From the NCBI GenBank assembly GCA_041664245.1, contig JBAYLC010000005.1, positions 8,695 through 72,694 of the forward strand: a stretch of DNA of 64,000 nucleotides, in the 5' to 3' direction. The translations under genes and the position numbers were made by a program. The notes beneath the pieces are model-generated. The model had not been told where the DNA came from and searched no databases. It saw nothing but the letters and a program-made list of their open reading frames with translations. This document shows positions 3,713-54,937 of the stretch, piece by piece; position 1 is the stretch's first letter; every line of letters starts with the position of its first letter. This DNA comes from Minisyncoccota bacterium (GTDB lineage: Bacteria; Patescibacteriota; Minisyncoccia; UBA6257; 2-01-FULL-56-20).

Positions 3713-4691
3713 TCGAAATAAGGATTTTATTTTTAGTGATCTAATGGATAAAAATTCTAAAATTTACATAGCCGGGCACCGAGGCCTTGTTGGGTCGGCT
3801 ATTTTAAGGAAGCTTCAGGCCGGCAACTATTCAAACCTGGTCACTCGCGAACATCAAGAACTTGATCTGCTTGACGCAAGAATGACAGCAGATTTTTTTA
3901 AAAAAGAAAAACCAGAATACGTAATCGATGCTGCAGCAAAAGTAGGTGGTATTCACGCAAATAACACCTATCCCGCTGAATTTATTTACAACAACCTCTG
4001 TATCCAAAACAATATTATTCACAGCTCATATCTGGCGAATGTTAAACGTTTGCTTTTCATGGGGAGTGCCTGCATCTATCCGAAAATTTGTCCGCAACCA
4101 ATCAAAGAAGAATACCTATTGACTGGAGCGCTTGAACCGACAAATGAACCTTATGCAATTGCAAAAATCGCGGGGTATGAAATGTGTGATGCATATAATC
4201 GCCAATATGGGACCGATTATTTTTCGGTAATGCCCACCAATCTCTATGGTCCCAACGATCACTTTAACCTTGAGAACTCACACGTGATCCCAGCACTTAT
4301 GCGTAAATTCTATGAGGCAAAAACGAAAGGGAAAAATGAAGTGGTTCTTTGGGGGACTGGAAGTCCTACGCGTGACTTTATGCACTCCGACGATCTCGCC
4401 GATGCCTGTATCTTTCTCATGAATCAGCCATCGCTCTCTCATAGCCTCATTAACATCGGAACCGGCAAGGATATTTCGATTAGGGATCTTGCCGAAACCG
4501 TAAGTAAGGTGAGCGGATTTGAGGGAAAACTCACCTGGGATACCTCAAAGCCAGATGGAACGCCGCGAAGACGCGTTGACACCGAGCGGCTGAACGCTAT
4601 GGGATGGCATCACACCGTAATACTCGAAGACGGACTTAGTTCGACTTATCAGTGGTTTCTTGATAATGTCGCCAATAAAATCAAGGTATAA
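3705..4691 (+). CDS. fcl: GDP-L-fucose synthase (GDP-4-keto-6-deoxymannose 3,5-epimerase/4-reductase)
   Basis: IYIAGHRGLVGSAI N-terminus and YAIAKIAG catalytic motif. Typical Fcl/WcaG length. Confidence 0.9.
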   Translation: MDSRNKDFIFSDLMDKNSKIYIAGHRGLVGSAILRKLQAGNYSNLVTREHQELDLLDARMTADFFKKEKPEYVIDAAAKVGGIHANNTYPAEFIYNNLCIQNNIIHSSYLANVKRLLFMGSACIYPKICPQPIKEEYLLTGALEPTNEPYAIAKIAGYEMCDAYNRQYGTDYFSVMPTNLYGPNDHFNLENSHVIPALMRKFYEAKTKGKNEVVLWGTGSPTRDFMHSDDLADACIFLMNQPSLSHSLINIGTGKDISIRDLAETVSKVSGFEGKLTWDTSKPDGTPRRRVDTERLNAMGWHHTVILEDGLSSTYQWFLDNVANKIKV

Positions 4692-4737
4692 CGATAAAAA
4701 TCCTTGGGCGAGATAATAAAAAAGCAATAAAAATTTT

Positions 4738-5823
4738 ATGAATATTTCTGTAAAAGGAAAAAAAGTCGTAGTGTTTGATACTTTGGGGCCGCATTCCAAG
4801 CAGAATTTATGTTTTGATCCGAGCGTAGCAAAAGAGAAATGGTATCATCACTGTGCTTCTTATTTCTATGAAGAGTGCCAAAAAAAAGGTATTCAACTTA
4901 TTACCACCGATATTTATTTTGCCTTGTCAGAAAAACCAAAGGCTATCTGTATGCGAGAACGCATTGATGTGGACATGAGTACGTCACTCGCCCTACAAAA
5001 ATCCGGGGTGCGGCTTGCGGTTATTAGAAATTCTGAAAATCCGTTATATGCCTGCCGTTTTTTTTGGAACCTCGAAAGGCTTACGAGCTATTTTGATCAT
5101 TCAGTCGTGGTAAAAGGTGTAAAAGATTGGGTATCGCCTAAAAGCCATTTCCATCCGTGGTTTATCCCTCACGCATATTACAGCCAAATTCATGAAGTGC
5201 AATCAGACTTCCGCAAAAAAAAGTTTCTCGTTCTCATTCAACGGAATGCGAGGATACATTGGTTGCGCCGTTTATATGTGTCCGGGTTGAATTTTATAAA
5301 ACCTCTGCCAAATTTCGTAAACCAGGAAGGGTATCTTAATCGGCTAGAAGCCATAAAATATTTCTCTCAATATCCTGATTTTGATTTATATGGAATGTGG
5401 TGGGATAAACCAGTTCGCTATACACGCAAATATGACGAATCTATTCGAAAATCATATCGTGGGGCTGTTGAAGATAAATTCGCATTATTGAAGCAGTACA
5501 AGTTTTCTCTTATATTTGATAATGCTTATTTAGGGGGGATGGTACATGAGAAAATGACTGATTGTCTTTATGCCGGTTCCGTCCCGATTTATTGGGGGGC
5601 GCCAGACATTGCCGATATTTTCCCAGCTAATTGTTTTATTGATTTCAGGAAATTCGGTTGTGATTTTGCCCGCCTTAATGAATATCTACGCGCTATGGAC
5701 GAAAACACCTATAACGACTACATTAAAAATATCAATAAATTTATATCCTCGCCTGCAGCCTACAATCTAAGTCAAGAAAAATACACGGGCGATATGATAA
5801 AAATTTTTGAATCGTATTTTTAA
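4738..5823 (+). CDS. GT10 alpha-1,3-fucosyltransferase
   Basis: YKFSLIFDNAYLGGMVHEKMTDCLYAGSVPIYWGAP matches the FucT motifs YKFxLxFENS...YxTEK...PIYWG of Helicobacter FutA/B. Immediately downstream of the GDP-fucose genes. Confidence 0.8.
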   Translation: MNISVKGKKVVVFDTLGPHSKQNLCFDPSVAKEKWYHHCASYFYEECQKKGIQLITTDIYFALSEKPKAICMRERIDVDMSTSLALQKSGVRLAVIRNSENPLYACRFFWNLERLTSYFDHSVVVKGVKDWVSPKSHFHPWFIPHAYYSQIHEVQSDFRKKKFLVLIQRNARIHWLRRLYVSGLNFIKPLPNFVNQEGYLNRLEAIKYFSQYPDFDLYGMWWDKPVRYTRKYDESIRKSYRGAVEDKFALLKQYKFSLIFDNAYLGGMVHEKMTDCLYAGSVPIYWGAPDIADIFPANCFIDFRKFGCDFARLNEYLRAMDENTYNDYIKNINKFISSPAAYNLSQEKYTGDMIKIFESYF

Positions 5824-6880: not shown

Positions 6881-8392
6881 ATGAGTCGTTTAGACGCAGT
6901 TTTTGTTATCCCTGGCAACCTCACTCAGGTTTACCAAGTTTTTGCTAAAGAACACGCCATCGAACCGCCTATTTTCGCCCTCTGGATAGCGTCTCATCTA
7001 GAGAGCAAAGGGTATAGTTTCGAATTTATTGATGCCGTGCCGTCCAATCTTTTTCCAGAAGAAGTTGCTGCTGAAGTCGTTCATCTCAACCCAAGACTTG
7101 TTATTGTACCTGTCTATGGTTCTCAACCTTCTGCTTCAACTCAAAACATGCCAGCCGCGCGAAGAACGTGCCAAGCAATAAAAGATCTCAAGCCAGATCA
7201 AAAAATCCTCGTCACTGGCACCCATCCCGCGGCATTACCAGAGCGAACTCTTAGGGAAGAACCAGTGGATTTTGTTTGCGACGGTGAAGGTCCCACAACT
7301 CTTATCGAAATTCTCGAGGTCTTGAGAAATGGGGATGATGTTTCCAATGTGGGAAGTCTTTGGTACTGGGAAAGTGGGAAACCCAAATACACTCATCCGG
7401 CGCGGAATGTTACCGAACTTGAGTTTGATCCGGACATCTGGCGATTTCTTCCGATGAGTCGCTACATTGCCCACGATTGGCATACTGGTTATCGAGATTT
7501 TGCGTCTCGCAAGCCCTACGCTTCTATCCTAACTACGCTTGGTTGTCCTTTCCGATGTTCATTCTGCTGCATTCAAACTCCGTTTAGAGCGGGTGAGGCA
7601 GCTATAGGGCGTAATCCAAAATCGAACTCTTACCGTTTCTGGTCGCCGCAGGTCATCATCAAAACCATAGAAGTGCTCGTTAGAAAGTATGGTATGGAGC
7701 ATATCAAGATTCACGATGAGTTATTCGTCTTGAATCAAAGGCATGTGAGTGCCATTTGCGCTTTAATCAAAGAACGCTTCAACGATGATTTGAATATTTG
7801 GGCTTACTCTCGTGCCGACACAGCCCAGCCTAAGTCTTTAGACATCCTAAGGGCGGCCGGGATTCGTTGGCTAGCTGTTGGTATTGAGCGCGACGGTAAA
7901 AACAAATCTTTTTCTGGCGAGGATATACTCCGAGTTAGAGAAATGATTAAGGATGCTGGTATTAAATTAGCGGCGAACTACATTTTTGGACTGCCCGGTG
8001 ATACCAAGGATAGCATGCAGGCTACACTAGATATGGCTCTGGCAATAAATTCGCCATTCGCTAATTTCTATTGTGCTATGGCTTACCCCGGTTCCGAACT
8101 CTATGAGGAAGCCGTAAGAAGAAATTTACCATTGCCAGATAGTCCTGGTGGTCCCGGTTGGATTGGTTACTCTCAGCACGCCTACGAAGCCACGCCTCTT
8201 CCGACCGATTCTCTTTCCGCCGCAGACATTCTTCGTTTTAGGGATGAAGCCTGGAGGAGATACTACACCAACCCAAAGTTTCTTTCCATGCTTCAGGATT
8301 GGTATGGTGAAAACGGCGAAGAAGCAGAGAGAAACATAAAAAAAATGACCTCTCTATCTCCCCTCCGCCGAGCGCTTTTCGAAAAAACATGA
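6881..8392 (+). CDS. B12-binding-domain radical SAM enzyme
   Basis: N-terminal cobalamin-binding Rossmann-like domain. Cys cluster CPFRCSFCC (CxxxCxxC plus an extra C), then a TIM-barrel-length region. Class-B radical SAM architecture. Confidence 0.8.
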   Translation: MSRLDAVFVIPGNLTQVYQVFAKEHAIEPPIFALWIASHLESKGYSFEFIDAVPSNLFPEEVAAEVVHLNPRLVIVPVYGSQPSASTQNMPAARRTCQAIKDLKPDQKILVTGTHPAALPERTLREEPVDFVCDGEGPTTLIEILEVLRNGDDVSNVGSLWYWESGKPKYTHPARNVTELEFDPDIWRFLPMSRYIAHDWHTGYRDFASRKPYASILTTLGCPFRCSFCCIQTPFRAGEAAIGRNPKSNSYRFWSPQVIIKTIEVLVRKYGMEHIKIHDELFVLNQRHVSAICALIKERFNDDLNIWAYSRADTAQPKSLDILRAAGIRWLAVGIERDGKNKSFSGEDILRVREMIKDAGIKLAANYIFGLPGDTKDSMQATLDMALAINSPFANFYCAMAYPGSELYEEAVRRNLPLPDSPGGPGWIGYSQHAYEATPLPTDSLSAADILRFRDEAWRRYYTNPKFLSMLQDWYGENGEEAERNIKKMTSLSPLRRALFEKT

Positions 8393-43685: not shown

Positions 43686-43725
43686 AAAAAAAACGGCCTC
43701 TCGCTTGCATAAAGCGAGAGGCCGT
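43686..43725 (-). terminator. strong intrinsic terminator for a minus-strand transcript
   Basis: Perfect 12-13-bp stem CGGCCTCTCGCTT/AGCGAGAGGCCG with a 6-nt loop. On the minus strand it is followed by TTTTTTTT. Confidence 0.7.
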
Positions 43726-43956
43726 CGGATTTAGTATCAACTAGTATCCCTCTAGCAGAGCGACAATCCCCGCGAGGAAAGCGTATTACATTATTTACAG
43801 TGATTAATCGCAAGATCACCGCTCCACCTCAAAGGACACGAGCTAAACCCATACTAACTCCAATTCGAATTTTCTAACCTCCTTCGCCAATTGTTCAAAT
43901 AACTAATCTCCGGTTGTTAAACCCCAATCTTTCATGGTTTTCCCAACCTCTAGACT
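43686..43956 (-). ncRNA. candidate about 270-nt small RNA (unclassified)
   Basis: Bounded by the consensus promoter and the strong terminator above. Longest internal ORFs are about 10 aa. Confidence 0.4.
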
Positions 43957-43962
43957 ACGACA

Positions 43963-43990
43963 ATTATAACAAACCCCCAAAAATTGTCAA
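43963..43990 (-). promoter_or_regulatory. consensus sigma70 promoter on the minus strand (TTGACA-16 bp-TATAAT)
   Basis: Minus-strand reading: TTGACAatttttgggggtttgtTATAAT. No ORF follows before the terminator at 43725. Confidence 0.6.
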
Positions 43991-46998: not shown

Positions 46999-48660
46999 AT
47001 GGCAAAACAAATTTTATTTAACGAAGAAGCGCGCGCAGCGCTCAAAAAAGGAATCGACAAATTAGCTGATGCCGTTCGGATGACTCTTGGCCCTCGCGGC
47101 CGGGCAGTTGTTATCGAAAAAGGCTACGGCGCTCCGCAGGTTACTTTTGATGGCGTTACTGTCGCCAAAGAAATTGAATTTCAAGATAAATACGAAAATC
47201 TCGGCGCTGATTTTATTAAGCAAGCGGCCGATAAAACTAACGACAATGTTGGTGATGGCACTACCACTTCCGTCGTCTTGGCTCACGCCATGATCGATGA
47301 AGGTGAAAAATTAATCCGAGAAAAAGGATTCAACGTCATCCAGCTCGCCGAAGAATTAAAAAAAGAAAGCCTGGAAGTGGTTAAAGCTCTTGAAGCCCAG
47401 CGCGAACTGATCAACGACAATAAAAAAATCGAAGAAGTCGCCACTCTCTCGGCTAAAGATAAATCTATTGGCCAGCTCATCGCTAAAGTGATGGATAAAA
47501 TTGGCAAAGAAGGCGTTGTTACAATCGAAGATTCCAACACCATCGGCAACTCCGATGAATTTGTCGAAGGAATGCAGTTTGACCGCGGTTATATCTCGCC
47601 CTATATGATTACCAATCAAGAACGAATGGAGTCTGAACTCGAAGATCCGTATGTTCTTGTGACCGACAAAAAGATTTCTTCAATCAGTGAGCTTCTTCCA
47701 ATTTTGGAAAAAATCGTCCAAAGCGGCAAAAAAGAATTAGTTATTATCGCCGAAGAAGTTGATGGCGAAGCTCTTGCCACCTTAGTGGTCAACAAGCTTC
47801 GCGGTATCTTTAACGTCTTAGCAGTGAAGGCTCCAGGGTTTGGTGATCGTCGCAAAGAGATGCTTCAAGACATCGCGGTTGTAACTGGCGCGGAATTTAT
47901 CTCTGAAGATCTTGGTAAAAAAATCGAAGGAATCGAAATTTCCGACCTTGGCCACGCCCATCGTGTTTTATCTAATAAAGATAATACGACCATTGTCGGC
48001 GGCAAGGGTAATAAAAAAGATATTGAAGCTCGCGTTTCCCAAATCAAAGCCCAGATTCAAAAAACCGATTCCGATTTTGATAAAGAAAAACTTCAGGAAC
48101 GGTTAGGCAAGCTTTCGAGCGGCGTCGCCGTAATCAAAGTTGGCGCGCCCACTGAGTCGGCTCAAAAAGAATTAAAGCAACGTGTCGAAGACGCTGTGGC
48201 CGCCACCCGCGCTGCCATGGAAGAGGGAATTGTCCCCGGCGGTGGTATGGCTCTCTTTAATGTCATTCCGACCATCGAAGCGCTAAAAGGAAAGGATAAT
48301 AATATAATTGAAGCCACTCGTCAGATTCTAAAGCGCGCTCTCGAAGCGCCGATAACCGCGATTGTGGTGAATAGCGGCGAAGCGCCGAAGACGGTCATTG
48401 AAGAACTAAAAGAAAAGAAAACTAAGTCATCTAGTGTTTGGCTTGGCTTCAACGCGGTAGTAAATAAAATTGCCGACCTTAAAGAAGCAGGGATTATTGA
48501 TCCGCTTAAAGTCACCAAAACTGCCTTTCTAAATGCCATCTCGGTCGCCGCCAATTATTTGACTGTCGGCGCCGCTATTTCAGAGCTTCCCAAAAAAGAA
48601 GAGAAAGGAATGCCCGGAATGGGTGGTATGCCTGGTGGTATGGGGATGAGTGATTACTAA
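46999..48660 (+). CDS. groEL: chaperonin GroEL
   Basis: AKQILFNEEAR...GDGTTT...GGM-repeat C-terminus (MPGMGGMPGGMGM). Confidence 0.97.
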   Translation: MAKQILFNEEARAALKKGIDKLADAVRMTLGPRGRAVVIEKGYGAPQVTFDGVTVAKEIEFQDKYENLGADFIKQAADKTNDNVGDGTTTSVVLAHAMIDEGEKLIREKGFNVIQLAEELKKESLEVVKALEAQRELINDNKKIEEVATLSAKDKSIGQLIAKVMDKIGKEGVVTIEDSNTIGNSDEFVEGMQFDRGYISPYMITNQERMESELEDPYVLVTDKKISSISELLPILEKIVQSGKKELVIIAEEVDGEALATLVVNKLRGIFNVLAVKAPGFGDRRKEMLQDIAVVTGAEFISEDLGKKIEGIEISDLGHAHRVLSNKDNTTIVGGKGNKKDIEARVSQIKAQIQKTDSDFDKEKLQERLGKLSSGVAVIKVGAPTESAQKELKQRVEDAVAATRAAMEEGIVPGGGMALFNVIPTIEALKGKDNNIIEATRQILKRALEAPITAIVVNSGEAPKTVIEELKEKKTKSSSVWLGFNAVVNKIADLKEAGIIDPLKVTKTAFLNAISVAANYLTVGAAISELPKKEEKGMPGMGGMPGGMGMSDY

Positions 48661-48683
48661 TTCTCAATCTATAAATAAAAAAA

Positions 48684-48712
48684 GCCCCGCTCAAAAAAAG
48701 CGGGGTTTTGGT
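48684..48712. terminator. bidirectional intrinsic terminator between groEL and the rlpA-like gene
   Basis: AAAAA-GCCCCGC-loop-GCGGGG-TTTT. Confidence 0.7.
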
Positions 48713-48739
48713 TTCTTGGTTTCTGGAAACCTTGAACTC

Positions 48740-49195
48740 TTATCTTGGCCGATAGAGTTCACGATATTGTAGTATTGCCAATCCTTCCCATCCAAATCCT
48801 AACGCCTTAGCCGCGGCATAAGAAAGATCAATATCGCGTCCCTTCACATATGGTCCGCGATCAGTAACTTCCACCACAATTTCTTTGCCATTGCGCGGAT
48901 TCTGAAGTAATAACAGCGTTCCTAGGGGCAGGTAGCGGTGTGCCGCCGAAATTCTTGTCAGATCAAATCTCTGACCGTTTGCCATCAACTTGTTCTGAAA
49001 ATACAACCCATACCACGAAGCGCTAATCGGGCGCATCGAGTGATAATTTGAGGTTGGTGTTTGAGAGAAAGTTACTTCCCCGTCTTTAGGATTAGCTTGG
49101 TATTCTGCCAGAGCAGGCGTACTTCTTGAGCTGACGCAGAGCACCAGAAACCATAAACCAATCCAAAAAATAAGAAGAGAAAAAAATACTTTCAA
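48740..49195 (-). CDS. RlpA-like double-psi beta-barrel protein (septal lytic transglycosylase family)
   Basis: Signal/TM N-terminus. DPBB block YLPLGTLLLLQNPRNGKEIVVEVTDRGPYVKGRDIDLSYAAAKALG. Confidence 0.8.
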   Translation of the reverse strand: MKVFFSLLIFWIGLWFLVLCVSSRSTPALAEYQANPKDGEVTFSQTPTSNYHSMRPISASWYGLYFQNKLMANGQRFDLTRISAAHRYLPLGTLLLLQNPRNGKEIVVEVTDRGPYVKGRDIDLSYAAAKALGFGWEGLAILQYRELYRPR

Positions 49196-49313
49196 AATTC
49201 AACTCCTTCTTGTCGCGTTATAGCTTCAGCGAAAACGGACTTTTTTATCATAACTTTTTCGCCTCAGGCTGAAACGCAAACAGACACGTGACTGACATCA
49301 ATGAACTGCCAAT

Positions 49314-49342
49314 ATTCTATTAGATAAAATCAATTTTGTCAA
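49314..49342 (-). promoter_or_regulatory. sigma70 promoter of the rlpA-like gene (TTGACA-17 bp-TAGAAT, minus strand)
   Basis: Minus-strand reading: TTGACAaaattgattttatctaaTAGAAT. Implies a 5' UTR of about 115 nt. Confidence 0.55.
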
Positions 49343-49511
49343 CCCTAACACTAATTGGGGAATTGTTTAATTAGATTTCACTTCTGCTGCAACTTTCAAT
49401 TTTCAAACAGCTAAGTTATTTAAACCATTTTTTATTGATTTTCCCCGATTAGTGTGGGGGCCAATGGTTCTAATAATTAAGACGAATCAATCGGGAATTT
49501 GTTACAAACTT

Positions 49512-49745
49512 TTATAAAAAAAAGTGGCCCCTGCCTAATTCCCGCAAGGGGAGAGACAGAGGCCGGTTACGAATCGCGCCGTTTACTTCTTCGTGGAACC
49601 TTCCAGTATAGAAATAACGGAGTGAAGAATTTTGAGCAACATAATTGTCTCCTTTCGAGAAACTCATCATCTGTTGCCTTCATCTTTTTTTCGATTCCCC
49701 TCTGTTCCGGAGGGGAAACAATGCTTTCCACTCGGGAAAGTTGCT
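49512..49745 (-). ncRNA. candidate about 235-nt minus-strand small RNA (or small-peptide mRNA) with its own promoter and terminator
   Basis: Promoter TTGAAA-16 bp-TAATAT at 49752-49779 (minus). Terminator CCCCTTGCGGGAATTAGGCAGGGG + T8 ending near 49512. Internal hairpin CCCCTC-CGGAACA-GAGGGG. Contains a 19-codon ORF (49583-49642) with AAAGGAGA SD. Confidence 0.4.
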
Positions 49746-49823
49746 GATTAAATATTATCACAAGCCGCCACATTTTCAATAGAGAGTATTCCCTTTTTTT
49801 GATTTTTATATTATATTAGTCTT

Positions 49824-50390
49824 ATGAAAAAAGGTTCAACTAGCTTAATAATAATATTAATCGTGGTCGTCGTGGTCATCGTTGGAGGGTATCTTATCTT
49901 GAGTAAAAAATCAGTAGCGCCTGGAGATAATCAAAACCAATCATCCAGCACCGCCCCAGAAGTAAATAGTAATCAGCCCGTTACTAATGAAGAGTTGCCC
50001 ACCGCCTCCGATTTAAAAACTTACCGTAACGCCAAGTATGGATTTGAGTTTCAGTATCCGAAAAACTGGGACATCGGTTCGGATGTTGATTCTCCGGTGC
50101 AAGCCTCCATCGTATTTTTCGATTCTTCGAAAAATATGGTTTTCGCCGCTGCGGTTTTTCCTAAACTCGGCGCTTTTCAAGAAGTAAAAAAAGATTTTTC
50201 CTCAATAGTAGAAGAAAAATCAACAACCGTTTTAGGTATAAGTGCTACTAATATAACCGGAGTTAGTAAATTTAGTGGACAGACCGAAAATGACATCATT
50301 TTTGAAAAATCTGAAAAGACCTATGTCTTTGGTGGCCCCACTACACCGGCAACTCTTGATCAAATTATCAGCACTCTTAAATTTTTCTAA
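49824..50390 (+). CDS. hypothetical membrane-anchored extracytoplasmic protein
   Basis: N-terminal TM anchor (LIIILIVVVVVIVGGYLIL). No recognisable domain. Confidence 0.4.
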   Translation: MKKGSTSLIIILIVVVVVIVGGYLILSKKSVAPGDNQNQSSSTAPEVNSNQPVTNEELPTASDLKTYRNAKYGFEFQYPKNWDIGSDVDSPVQASIVFFDSSKNMVFAAAVFPKLGAFQEVKKDFSSIVEEKSTTVLGISATNITGVSKFSGQTENDIIFEKSEKTYVFGGPTTPATLDQIISTLKFF

Positions 50391-50396
50391 AAATAA

Positions 50397-50507
50397 ATGA
50401 GCAAGAAAAAAATAATTCTAATTACTATACTTATTTTAGTAATTATAGGGGTGGTTATAGCTTTTAGGGCTTTTTCTCTGCCTACACCTCCGACATTTCC
50501 TGACTAA
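50397..50507 (+). CDS. 36-aa single-TM peptide (possible remnant or duplicated N-terminal anchor)
   Basis: Hand-translated: MSKKKIILITILILVIIGVVIAFRAFSLPTPPTFPD. Similar composition to the N-terminal anchor of the upstream gene. Not in the track (under 60 aa). Confidence 0.3.
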   Translation: MSKKKIILITILILVIIGVVIAFRAFSLPTPPTFPD

Positions 50508-54559: not shown

Positions 54560-54937
54560 ATGCACGATTCTGGTTTCAAAAACTATCGTTTTGAGGATCT
54601 TGAAGTTTGGCAGCTTGGAATAAAAATAGTTGGCGAAGTTTATAATCTTGCAAAAAAATTTCCAAAGGAAGAATTATTTGCTCTATCTGATCAATTAAAA
54701 CGAGCGTCAACATCAATTGTTTTGAATATTGCCGAAGGATCTGGCCAGTCGACACATAAAAGTTTCGCTCTATATCTGAACCGCTCCAAGTCGTCGCTTT
54801 TAGAATCAGTCGCTTGTATCAAGATTGCTATTCAGCAAGGATTTGTTAACAAAAAAGAAACTGAAGATTTGGACAAATTATTTCGGGAAGAATATTTTAA
54901 GATTATTGCTTTAGAAAAATCGGTAAATAATAAATAA
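54560..54937 (+). CDS. four-helix-bundle protein of the 23S rRNA intervening-sequence type (TIGR02436-like)
   Basis: FEDLEVWQLGIKIVGEVYNLAKKFPKEELFALSDQLKRASTSIVLNIAEGSG is the family signature. Confidence 0.85.
   Translation: MHDSGFKNYRFEDLEVWQLGIKIVGEVYNLAKKFPKEELFALSDQLKRASTSIVLNIAEGSGQSTHKSFALYLNRSKSSLLESVACIKIAIQQGFVNKKETEDLDKLFREEYFKIIALEKSVNNK

Follow-up and report, generated by a model that had tools for sequence, protein, structure and literature searches.

The known bacterial systems closest to the locus described here fall among small RNAs (sRNAs), toxin mRNAs, and regulatory leaders. Dual-function sRNAs are exemplified by SR1/SR1P, SgrS/SgrT, and Spot 42/SpfP. The toxins of the type I Ibs/Sib systems are just 18 to 19 aa long. 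Attenuators that combine a leader peptide with a terminator include those of the trpL and ermCL types, and the ydaO c-di-AMP riboswitch is located 5' of cell-wall hydrolase genes; riboswitch control of rlpA-type genes by ydaO/c-di-AMP operates in other phyla. Patescibacteria (CPR) have very small genomes in which few known regulators are encoded, and a literature search found no work on sRNAs or RNA-based regulation in this group.

The current analysis deals with a strongly folded unit of ∼230 bases that has its own promoter and terminator and lies on the minus strand 5' of an rlpA-family gene. It was found in a 64,000-nt stretch of DNA, hereafter the window, from a Patescibacteria/Paceibacterota MAG, with identical contigs in JGI 3300037810 and ENA ERZ27249449. 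The preferred reading, put forward tentatively and at slightly less than an even chance, is that of an orphan, clade-specific, structured sRNA of ∼205 to 230 nt that is transcribed independently of its neighbors.

Genomic context and distribution

The gene order around the unit is GroES-GroEL (plus strand), rlpA (minus), the unit (minus), and p188-p36-p225-ThyX (plus). The next gene 3' of the unit, on the same strand, is the rlpA-family gene (48740-49195), assigned to the DPBB_1 family (PF03330) with an E value of 4.9e-19. Between this gene and the convergent GroEL gene, the GC-rich hairpin AAAGCCCCGC...GCGGGGTTTT (48681-48709), which carries T-runs on both strands, looks like a shared bidirectional terminator; it is the source of the only weak Rfam "leader" matches in the region.

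The closest GroEL sequences in GTDB are 81 to 83% identical and come from Liptonbacteria-like and other Patescibacteria MAGs. Only two further alleles of the unit were retrieved through homologs of the neighboring p225, rlpA, and ThyX genes, namely, the L087 type (NCBI GCA_036171875.1, with identical copies in three Logan assemblies) and L101 (Logan SRR22388063). In ThyX and GroEL DNA, their genomes share 88 to 90% identity with the window, and in all three alleles the unit occupies the same position, on the rlpA strand and 5' of that gene. L122 and L124, which come next in relatedness with ThyX 73 to 75% identical, keep the order GroEL-rlpA(−)-X(+)-ThyX with a spacer 5' of rlpA of just 111 to 133 nt that does not contain the unit; in L122, this spacer contains solely a homologous rlpA promoter, TTGACA-17-TAGAAT. 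Because synteny is retained around such a short spacer, the unit can be regarded as a young insertion or novelty restricted to one genus-level clade, a feature that the original prediction had missed. In L101, GroES and GroEL are separated by an inserted gene (L101 positions 1195 to 1554) for a 119-aa member of the 23S_rRNA_IVP family, a bAvd-like four-helix bundle; a second L101 copy (7974-8351) corresponds to the 125-aa ORF at 54560-54937 of the window.

Searches beyond these alleles were uniformly negative. The unit RNA was absent from 80 GroEL-anchored GTDB loci as judged by blastn, nhmmer, and a covariance model, and the covariance model R1, covering P2, P3, and the terminator (see below), detected no paralog within the window and no homolog among 86 loci. 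Sequence and covariance-model searches likewise found no second copy elsewhere in the window, blastn found no match to the unit in phage and plasmid collections, and ARAGORN recognized no tRNA or tmRNA at the unit. Rfam 15, applied to positions 48500 to 50500 at E ≤ 10, returned no relevant family and no riboswitch; the matches within 49500-49790 were snoRNA and CRISPR-repeat noise only, with 16.6 to 19.6 bits against thresholds of 39 to 50. At the gathering threshold, the whole window yielded one tRNA only. A scan of JGI metagenomes with GAAAGGAGACNNTTATGTTGC, the block that is invariant among the alleles, gave 15 matches, all in unrelated SD-ATG contexts, and also missed the contig of the window itself.

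Anatomy of the unit

A sigma-70-type promoter (49752-49779, minus strand) would start the transcript near 49745, the predicted transcription start site, and a strong intrinsic terminator would end it at 49516. The promoter combines the −35 element TTGAAA (49779-49774) and the −10 element TAATAT (49757-49752), with a 16-nt spacer and a TG upstream of the −10 element; a consensus scan offers TGtGATAAT as another possible parse. The promoter matches the consensus at 9 of 12 positions, and the same scan listed 9 promoter-like sites in the region versus 5.6 expected, so that taken alone this match is not beyond chance. Its sequence is identical in L101 and is retained at 28 of 34 positions in the L087 type.

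The predicted RNA would begin with a 5' hairpin domain that varies among the alleles (P1), followed by a long conserved hairpin that buries the SD-like sequence GAAAGGAG and an AUG (P2), a further hairpin (P3), and the terminator (P4). P1 (49694-49740) forms two hairpins in the window allele, CUUUCC-CGAGU-GGAAAG at 49740-49724 and UUUCCCCUC/GAGGGGAAU at 49718-49694, the latter with the core CCCCUC-CGGAACA-GAGGGG at 49715-49697. In the L087 type and L101 it is a single hairpin, the window allele carrying a 26-nt insertion. P2 (49624-49684) is the best-conserved element of the RNA according to RNAalifold and pair counts. It is built of a basal stem GCAACA/UGUUGC (49677-49672 with 49641-49636), an apical stem GUUUCU/GGAGAC, and an enclosing GAAG/CUUC pairing, and its folding energy is −13 to −15 kcal/mol across all alleles. 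The 8-nt SD sequence AAAGGAGA (49655-49648) is followed after 5 nt by an ATG at 49642, and in every allele RNAalifold places both the SD and the AUG (49642-49640) in base pairs within P2.

The ATG opens a mini-ORF of 19 codons (49583-49642, minus strand) that encodes MLLKILHSVISILEGSTKK and ends in a stop. Inside it lies P3 (49579-49620; CCGUUAUUUCU...AGAAGUAAACGG), whose loop is variable. The terminator (49516-49564) comprises a G+C-rich stem of 16 bp with the arms GGCCUCUGUCUCUCCCC...GGCAGGGGCC at 49564-49526 (−24.6 kcal/mol in the window and −23.7 to −25.1 kcal/mol among all alleles), followed by U8 at 49523-49516. The stem was taken from the RNA folds and had not been listed by a simple terminator scan.

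The original prediction, made from the letters of the window, had described the promoter TTGAAA-16-TAATAT, a strong hairpin (CCCCTC-CGGAACA-GAGGGG), the SD-N5-ATG arrangement, the 19-codon ORF, and the terminator, all of which are present on the minus strand. The terminator stem is longer than had been stated. The view of the locus as a self-contained unit running from promoter to terminator is supported. The promoter, the SD hairpin, and the terminator occur in all three alleles.

A second minus-strand unit of ∼270 nt is located at 43692-43990, with the promoter TTGACA-16-TATAAT (12/12, with TG) at 43990-43963, a 15-bp terminator at 43726-43692, and an MFE of −96 kcal/mol. It has no Rfam match and no homolog among the examined loci, and it is probably the "first" transcript implied by the original prediction.

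Fold stability and constraint

The 246-nt RNA of the window folds with −80.3 kcal/mol, a stability that none of 200 shuffled sequences reached (z = −3.9); for each of the other two alleles, z is −4.6. According to RNAalifold, the variable P1, P2, P3, and the terminator P4 are common to all three alleles. In the consensus of 53 pairs, 93.7% of the cells are paired, compared with 43 to 55% when the partners are slid. Three pairs, all in P2 (helices 2 to 4), are altered on both sides and still pair, 3 of the 9 pairs of P3 (helix 5) show one-sided changes that keep the pair, and the terminator (helix 6), with 95.8% of its cells paired, has six one-sided G-C/G-U/A-U changes. This covariation is not statistically convincing: shuffle controls reached the observed values in 21 to 107 of 500 cases (31/500 and 107/500 among them), with three alleles of which two are independent. 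The 26-nt insertion of the window allele provides each side of P1 with a new partner arm and turns one hairpin into two, so that structure is preserved in spite of the change. No conserved single-stranded seed of at least 7 nt was found in the three-allele comparison.

L101 is a mosaic that resembles the window from 49830 to ∼49690 and in the rlpA 5' untranslated region (UTR) (0 to 4% diverged) and the L087 type in the RNA body, ∼49690-49516 (0 to 12% diverged). Such a change of affinity over a few hundred bases shows homologous recombination between these Paceibacterota lineages. As L101 is a recombinant, the number of independent alleles compared is in effect two, with a handful of additional changes, which leaves the covariation statistically unconvincing. 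In the rlpA 5'UTR, a 45-nt segment (49236-49280) is shared by the window and L101 and absent from the L087 type.

Uncorrected divergence between the window and the L087 type amounts to 0.14 in P2, 0.18 in the promoter, 0.20 in the terminator, 0.24 in P1 (plus the 26-nt indel), and 0.31 in J2/3 together with P3, versus 0.50 in each of the junctions J1/2 and J3/4 and ∼0.46 at the synonymous sites of rlpA and thyX. The promoter, the SD hairpin, and the terminator are thus diverged 2- to 3-fold less than the neutral sites and are kept in 3/3 alleles. Drift in the junctions is thus as fast as at neutral sites, and slower change is seen in the promoter, the helices, and the terminator, which argues for constraint on the helices rather than on single-stranded sequence or codons. 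Both the flanking coding DNA and the spacer 3' of the terminator are better conserved than the RNA body taken as a whole. The original prediction had proposed to weigh conservation of the peptide against that of the RNA structure. In this comparison, the helices are held back and the peptide evolves nearly neutrally; covariation among three alleles is not decisive.

Coding potential

The mini-ORF could also be the purpose of the transcript. A small-ORF transcript or dual-function RNA, in which the 18- to 19-aa peptide or the act of translating it matters and opening of P2 gates initiation, is an unlikely alternative. The SD GAAAGGAG, its 5-nt spacing, and the ATG are invariant in all alleles as part of the block GAAAGGAGAC-NN-TTATGTTGC (SD plus TTATG). 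The 8-nt match of this SD to the canonical anti-SD tail is longer than the match found for any of the window's 62 long ORFs; because it stands in the most invariant block of the unit, translation could be of importance. All three alleles retain the SD, the start codon, and the open frame, with peptides of 19 codons in the window, 18 codons in the L087 type (MLRKILHNAISMEQGLTK), and 18 codons in L101 (MLRKILHNVISMEQGLTK), and 11 of 18 residues are identical.

Against a conserved peptide stand the 7 of 18 residues that differ (L3R, S8N, V9A, I12M, L13E, E14Q, and S16L), particularly L13E, S16L, and L3R, together with a stop that has moved by one codon. The pN/pS ratio in the mini-ORF frame is 0.92 for the L087 type and 0.84 for L101, figures based on small counts of 15 to 16 substitutions; the other two sense frames give 0.57 to 0.93, and rlpA, p188, and thyX give 0.07 to 0.26. 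One antisense frame has a ratio of ∼0.4 (22 substitutions) but is broken by frame-shifting indels. Pairing in the RNA explains why the N-terminal codons are conserved, since these overlap the P2 stem, and with 12 substitutions in 57 nt, chance survival of the mini-ORF is likely. Since the SD and the AUG are paired inside P2, the hairpin or gating of the translation start, or the two combined, may account for their invariance. Most likely, the promoter, the helices, and the terminator are under selection and no encoded peptide is.

Use of SD sequences appears to be weak in this genome: 27 of the 62 long ORFs in the window, with starts assigned mechanically, lack a match of at least 4 nt to the canonical anti-SD complement, and none has a match longer than 6 nt. 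No SD precedes p188 (49824), whose mRNA may be leaderless.

The 70-aa ORF at 49779-49567 (minus strand) is noncoding, as it had looked in the original prediction. It starts with a TTG (49779) that is the −35 hexamer itself, 5' of the predicted transcription start site, and therefore cannot be expressed from the promoter of the unit. It has 0 homologs among 1.84 billion representative proteins, and no ORF of the unit region has a match in Pfam. The indels among the alleles (26, 1, 2, 6, and 4 nt), which apart from the 6-nt one are not multiples of three, cannot be reconciled with conservation of a long ORF in either direction; those of 26, 1, and 2 nt fall inside the 70-aa ORF. Gene callers left 49195-49824 blank in the contigs from JGI 3300037810 and ENA ERZ27249449 (L001 and L002) and elsewhere predicted ORFs of 61 aa (L087, on the strand opposite to the unit), 57 aa (L102), or 81 aa (L101). 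This inconsistency in frame and strand is the behavior expected of noncoding DNA. Conservation of a longer protein-coding gene in relatives, the finding that would have spoken against the predicted small RNA, is not indicated, given the non-triplet indels and the near-neutral pN/pS ratios in the sense frames.

Recombination and the DNA upstream of rlpA

About equally improbable is a nonfunctional remnant, consisting of the promoter, ribosome-binding site, first codons, and terminator of a deleted gene or of foreign DNA, whether or not it is transcribed, with the similarity among the alleles maintained through recent recombination. The unit is young, being absent from the relatives with 73 to 75% ThyX identity, which have the short spacer instead. 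The region is demonstrably mosaic by recombination, a mobile element has landed beside the unit, and coding DNA is better conserved than the body of the RNA. However, within one stretch of 230 nt, neutral junctions (0.5) alternate with a promoter, helices, and a terminator at 0.14 to 0.31, a contrast that recombination alone does not explain. The 26-nt insertion in the window keeps the hairpin structure, and nothing resembling the unit was found in phage or plasmid DNA, among proteins, or elsewhere in the window.

The mobile element belongs to the best-conserved intergenic DNA of the locus, which lies 3' of the terminator (49515-49296, 3 to 9% diverged) and had also escaped the original prediction. 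Between the terminator and this element, spacer A (49462-49515, minus strand) is 4 to 9% diverged and contains the palindrome TTTGTAACAAA. The rlpA promoter TTGACA-17-TAGAAT (49314-49342, minus strand) matches the consensus at 11 of 12 positions and is 0 to 3% diverged; it is ancestral and is also present in L122, which lacks the unit. Together, spacer A and the rlpA promoter region (49462-49515 and 49308-49342) are 0 to 9% diverged, compared with ∼46% at synonymous sites. This may be due to constraint or to recent recombination, and the DNA in question is possibly upstream control DNA of rlpA.

The element itself, 118 nt long (49343-49460), is MITE-like. Its terminal inverted repeats, CCCCCACACTAAT and ATTAGTGT(TA|GG)GGG, span 13 to 21 bp (CCCCCACACTAAT and ATTAGTGTGGGGG), and it is flanked by the direct repeat TTGG/TTGA at 49461-49464 and 49339-49342, a 4-bp duplication of TTGA. 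It has inserted within the −35 hexamer of the rlpA promoter, where the duplication restores the sequence TTGACA. The same element is found in the L087 type (positions 4730 to 4847), whereas L101 has the empty site AACCATTGACAAAATTG (near 3959-3961). An independent copy that shares these termini but has a different interior, of 139 nt, is present in a Liptonbacteria MAG (L047, positions 543 to 681), where it is also flanked by TTGA and also lies inside a −35 element, that of TTGACC-17-TAGAGT. These two cases suggest a promoter-tolerated or promoter-targeting family of MITEs in Paceibacteria. A MITE family that lands in the TTGA of −35 elements and rebuilds the promoter bears on the survival of mobile DNA in streamlined genomes.

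A further alternative is a cis-acting leader or attenuator of rlpA, in which transcription would normally stop at the terminator and conditional read-through would add to rlpA expression. The unit is on the rlpA strand and always directly 5' of rlpA, its layout is that of a leader ORF with a terminator behind it, and rlpA-type genes of other phyla are riboswitch controlled (ydaO/c-di-AMP). However, the ancestral near-consensus rlpA promoter is located between the terminator and the gene, and the next relatives express rlpA from a spacer of 111 to 133 nt without the element. No anti-terminator pairing is common to the three alleles, the partner of the 5' arm of the terminator being different or absent from allele to allele, and loss of the terminator costs 17 to 20 kcal/mol. 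No riboswitch in Rfam matches even at E ≤ 10, and the putative aptamer part (P1, the junctions, and the P3 loop) is the most variable part of the RNA. An attenuator or riboswitch of rlpA is accordingly unlikely and a weaker candidate than a small-ORF transcript or a remnant.

The weakest alternative, a type I toxin-antitoxin system in which an antisense RNA represses the mRNA of a small membrane toxin with a sequestered SD, had been entertained in the original prediction and recalls Ibs toxins by its peptide of 18 to 19 aa and its SD and AUG buried in a hairpin, but it is highly improbable, as the peptide has no transmembrane-capable or hydrophobic stretch that would support an Ibs-type toxin (the longest runs free of R/K/D/E/Q/N/H are 6, 4, and 4 residues, and GRAVY is 0.68, −0.11, and 0.03, in the window, L087, and L101, respectively, so that the latter two are hydrophilic), evolves neutrally (pN/pS 0.84 to 0.92), and comes from a single-copy locus in which a consensus scan, itself a weak test, revealed no plus-strand promoter-like site for an antisense RNA at 49500-49780.

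A candidate structured sRNA

The preferred reading, an independently transcribed structured sRNA, agrees with the resemblance to sRNA loci noted in the original prediction, whose interpretation is thus supported in part, and fits best with the stable fold, the pattern of conservation, and the lack of a coding signature. The product is most likely a small noncoding RNA, neither a toxin nor a conserved mini-protein, that would act as RNA, either as a riboregulator or as a protein-binding RNA. From sequence comparison we infer its transcription, its function as RNA, and any target. One candidate protein-binding role, that of a CsrA/RsmA sponge, was rejected: the 6 to 7 GGA motifs, compared with 3.5 to 3.7 expected, do not constitute significant enrichment (P = 0.05 to 0.13).

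As for a target, the J2/3 segment UCAAAAUUC (49635-49627) is a perfect 9-nt complement, rich in A and U, of the rlpA start-codon region GAAUUUUGA (49200-49192). By a count of the longest complement, rlpA ranks second among 62 start regions; the complementarity is reduced to 6 nt in L087 and has a shifted register in L101. An RNAduplex comparison with all start regions was dominated by meaningless long duplexes and was dropped. This complementarity makes rlpA mRNA a weak lead as a possible target and is not evidence for one. A far-reaching version, in which the conserved SD/AUG hairpin works as a translation-gated switch, J2/3 pairs with the rlpA start, and a tiny uORF-like element feeds into peptidoglycan remodeling, would make this the first described riboregulator of CPR/Patescibacteria; it is speculation, if anything less probable than the attenuator discussed above.

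A structured RNA that is bounded by a promoter and a terminator and is under detectable constraint nevertheless offers a concrete candidate for testing in metatranscriptomes, and its restriction to one genus-level clade could make it a case of very recent birth of an sRNA. Its value is limited by this narrow distribution and by a comparative base of two to three alleles.

Comparison with known systems

Attenuators of the trpL/ermCL type and the ydaO riboswitch share with the unit the succession of a short ORF and an intrinsic terminator 5' of a gene, in this case one for an RlpA-like hydrolase. The unit differs from them in the strong independent promoter between the terminator and the gene and in lacking a conserved anti-terminator, a run of regulatory codons, and an Rfam match. 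The Ibs/Sib type I toxins are similar in the length of the ORF and in the sequestration of the translation start in the structure of the mRNA. In contrast to these, the peptide of the unit is not hydrophobic and shows neutral substitution, and the locus is present in one copy with no antisense partner in sight.

Orphan trans-acting sRNAs, including the dual-function SR1/SR1P, SgrS/SgrT, and Spot 42/SpfP, extend like the unit over ∼0.2 kb from promoter to terminator and contain several hairpins. The likeness includes an SD-preceded ORF of very few codons and a possible target gene that adjoins the RNA gene. Unlike these sRNAs, the unit has neither sequence or structure homology in Rfam nor a conserved single-stranded seed, its peptide is not under purifying selection, and its host belongs to the Patescibacteria/CPR.
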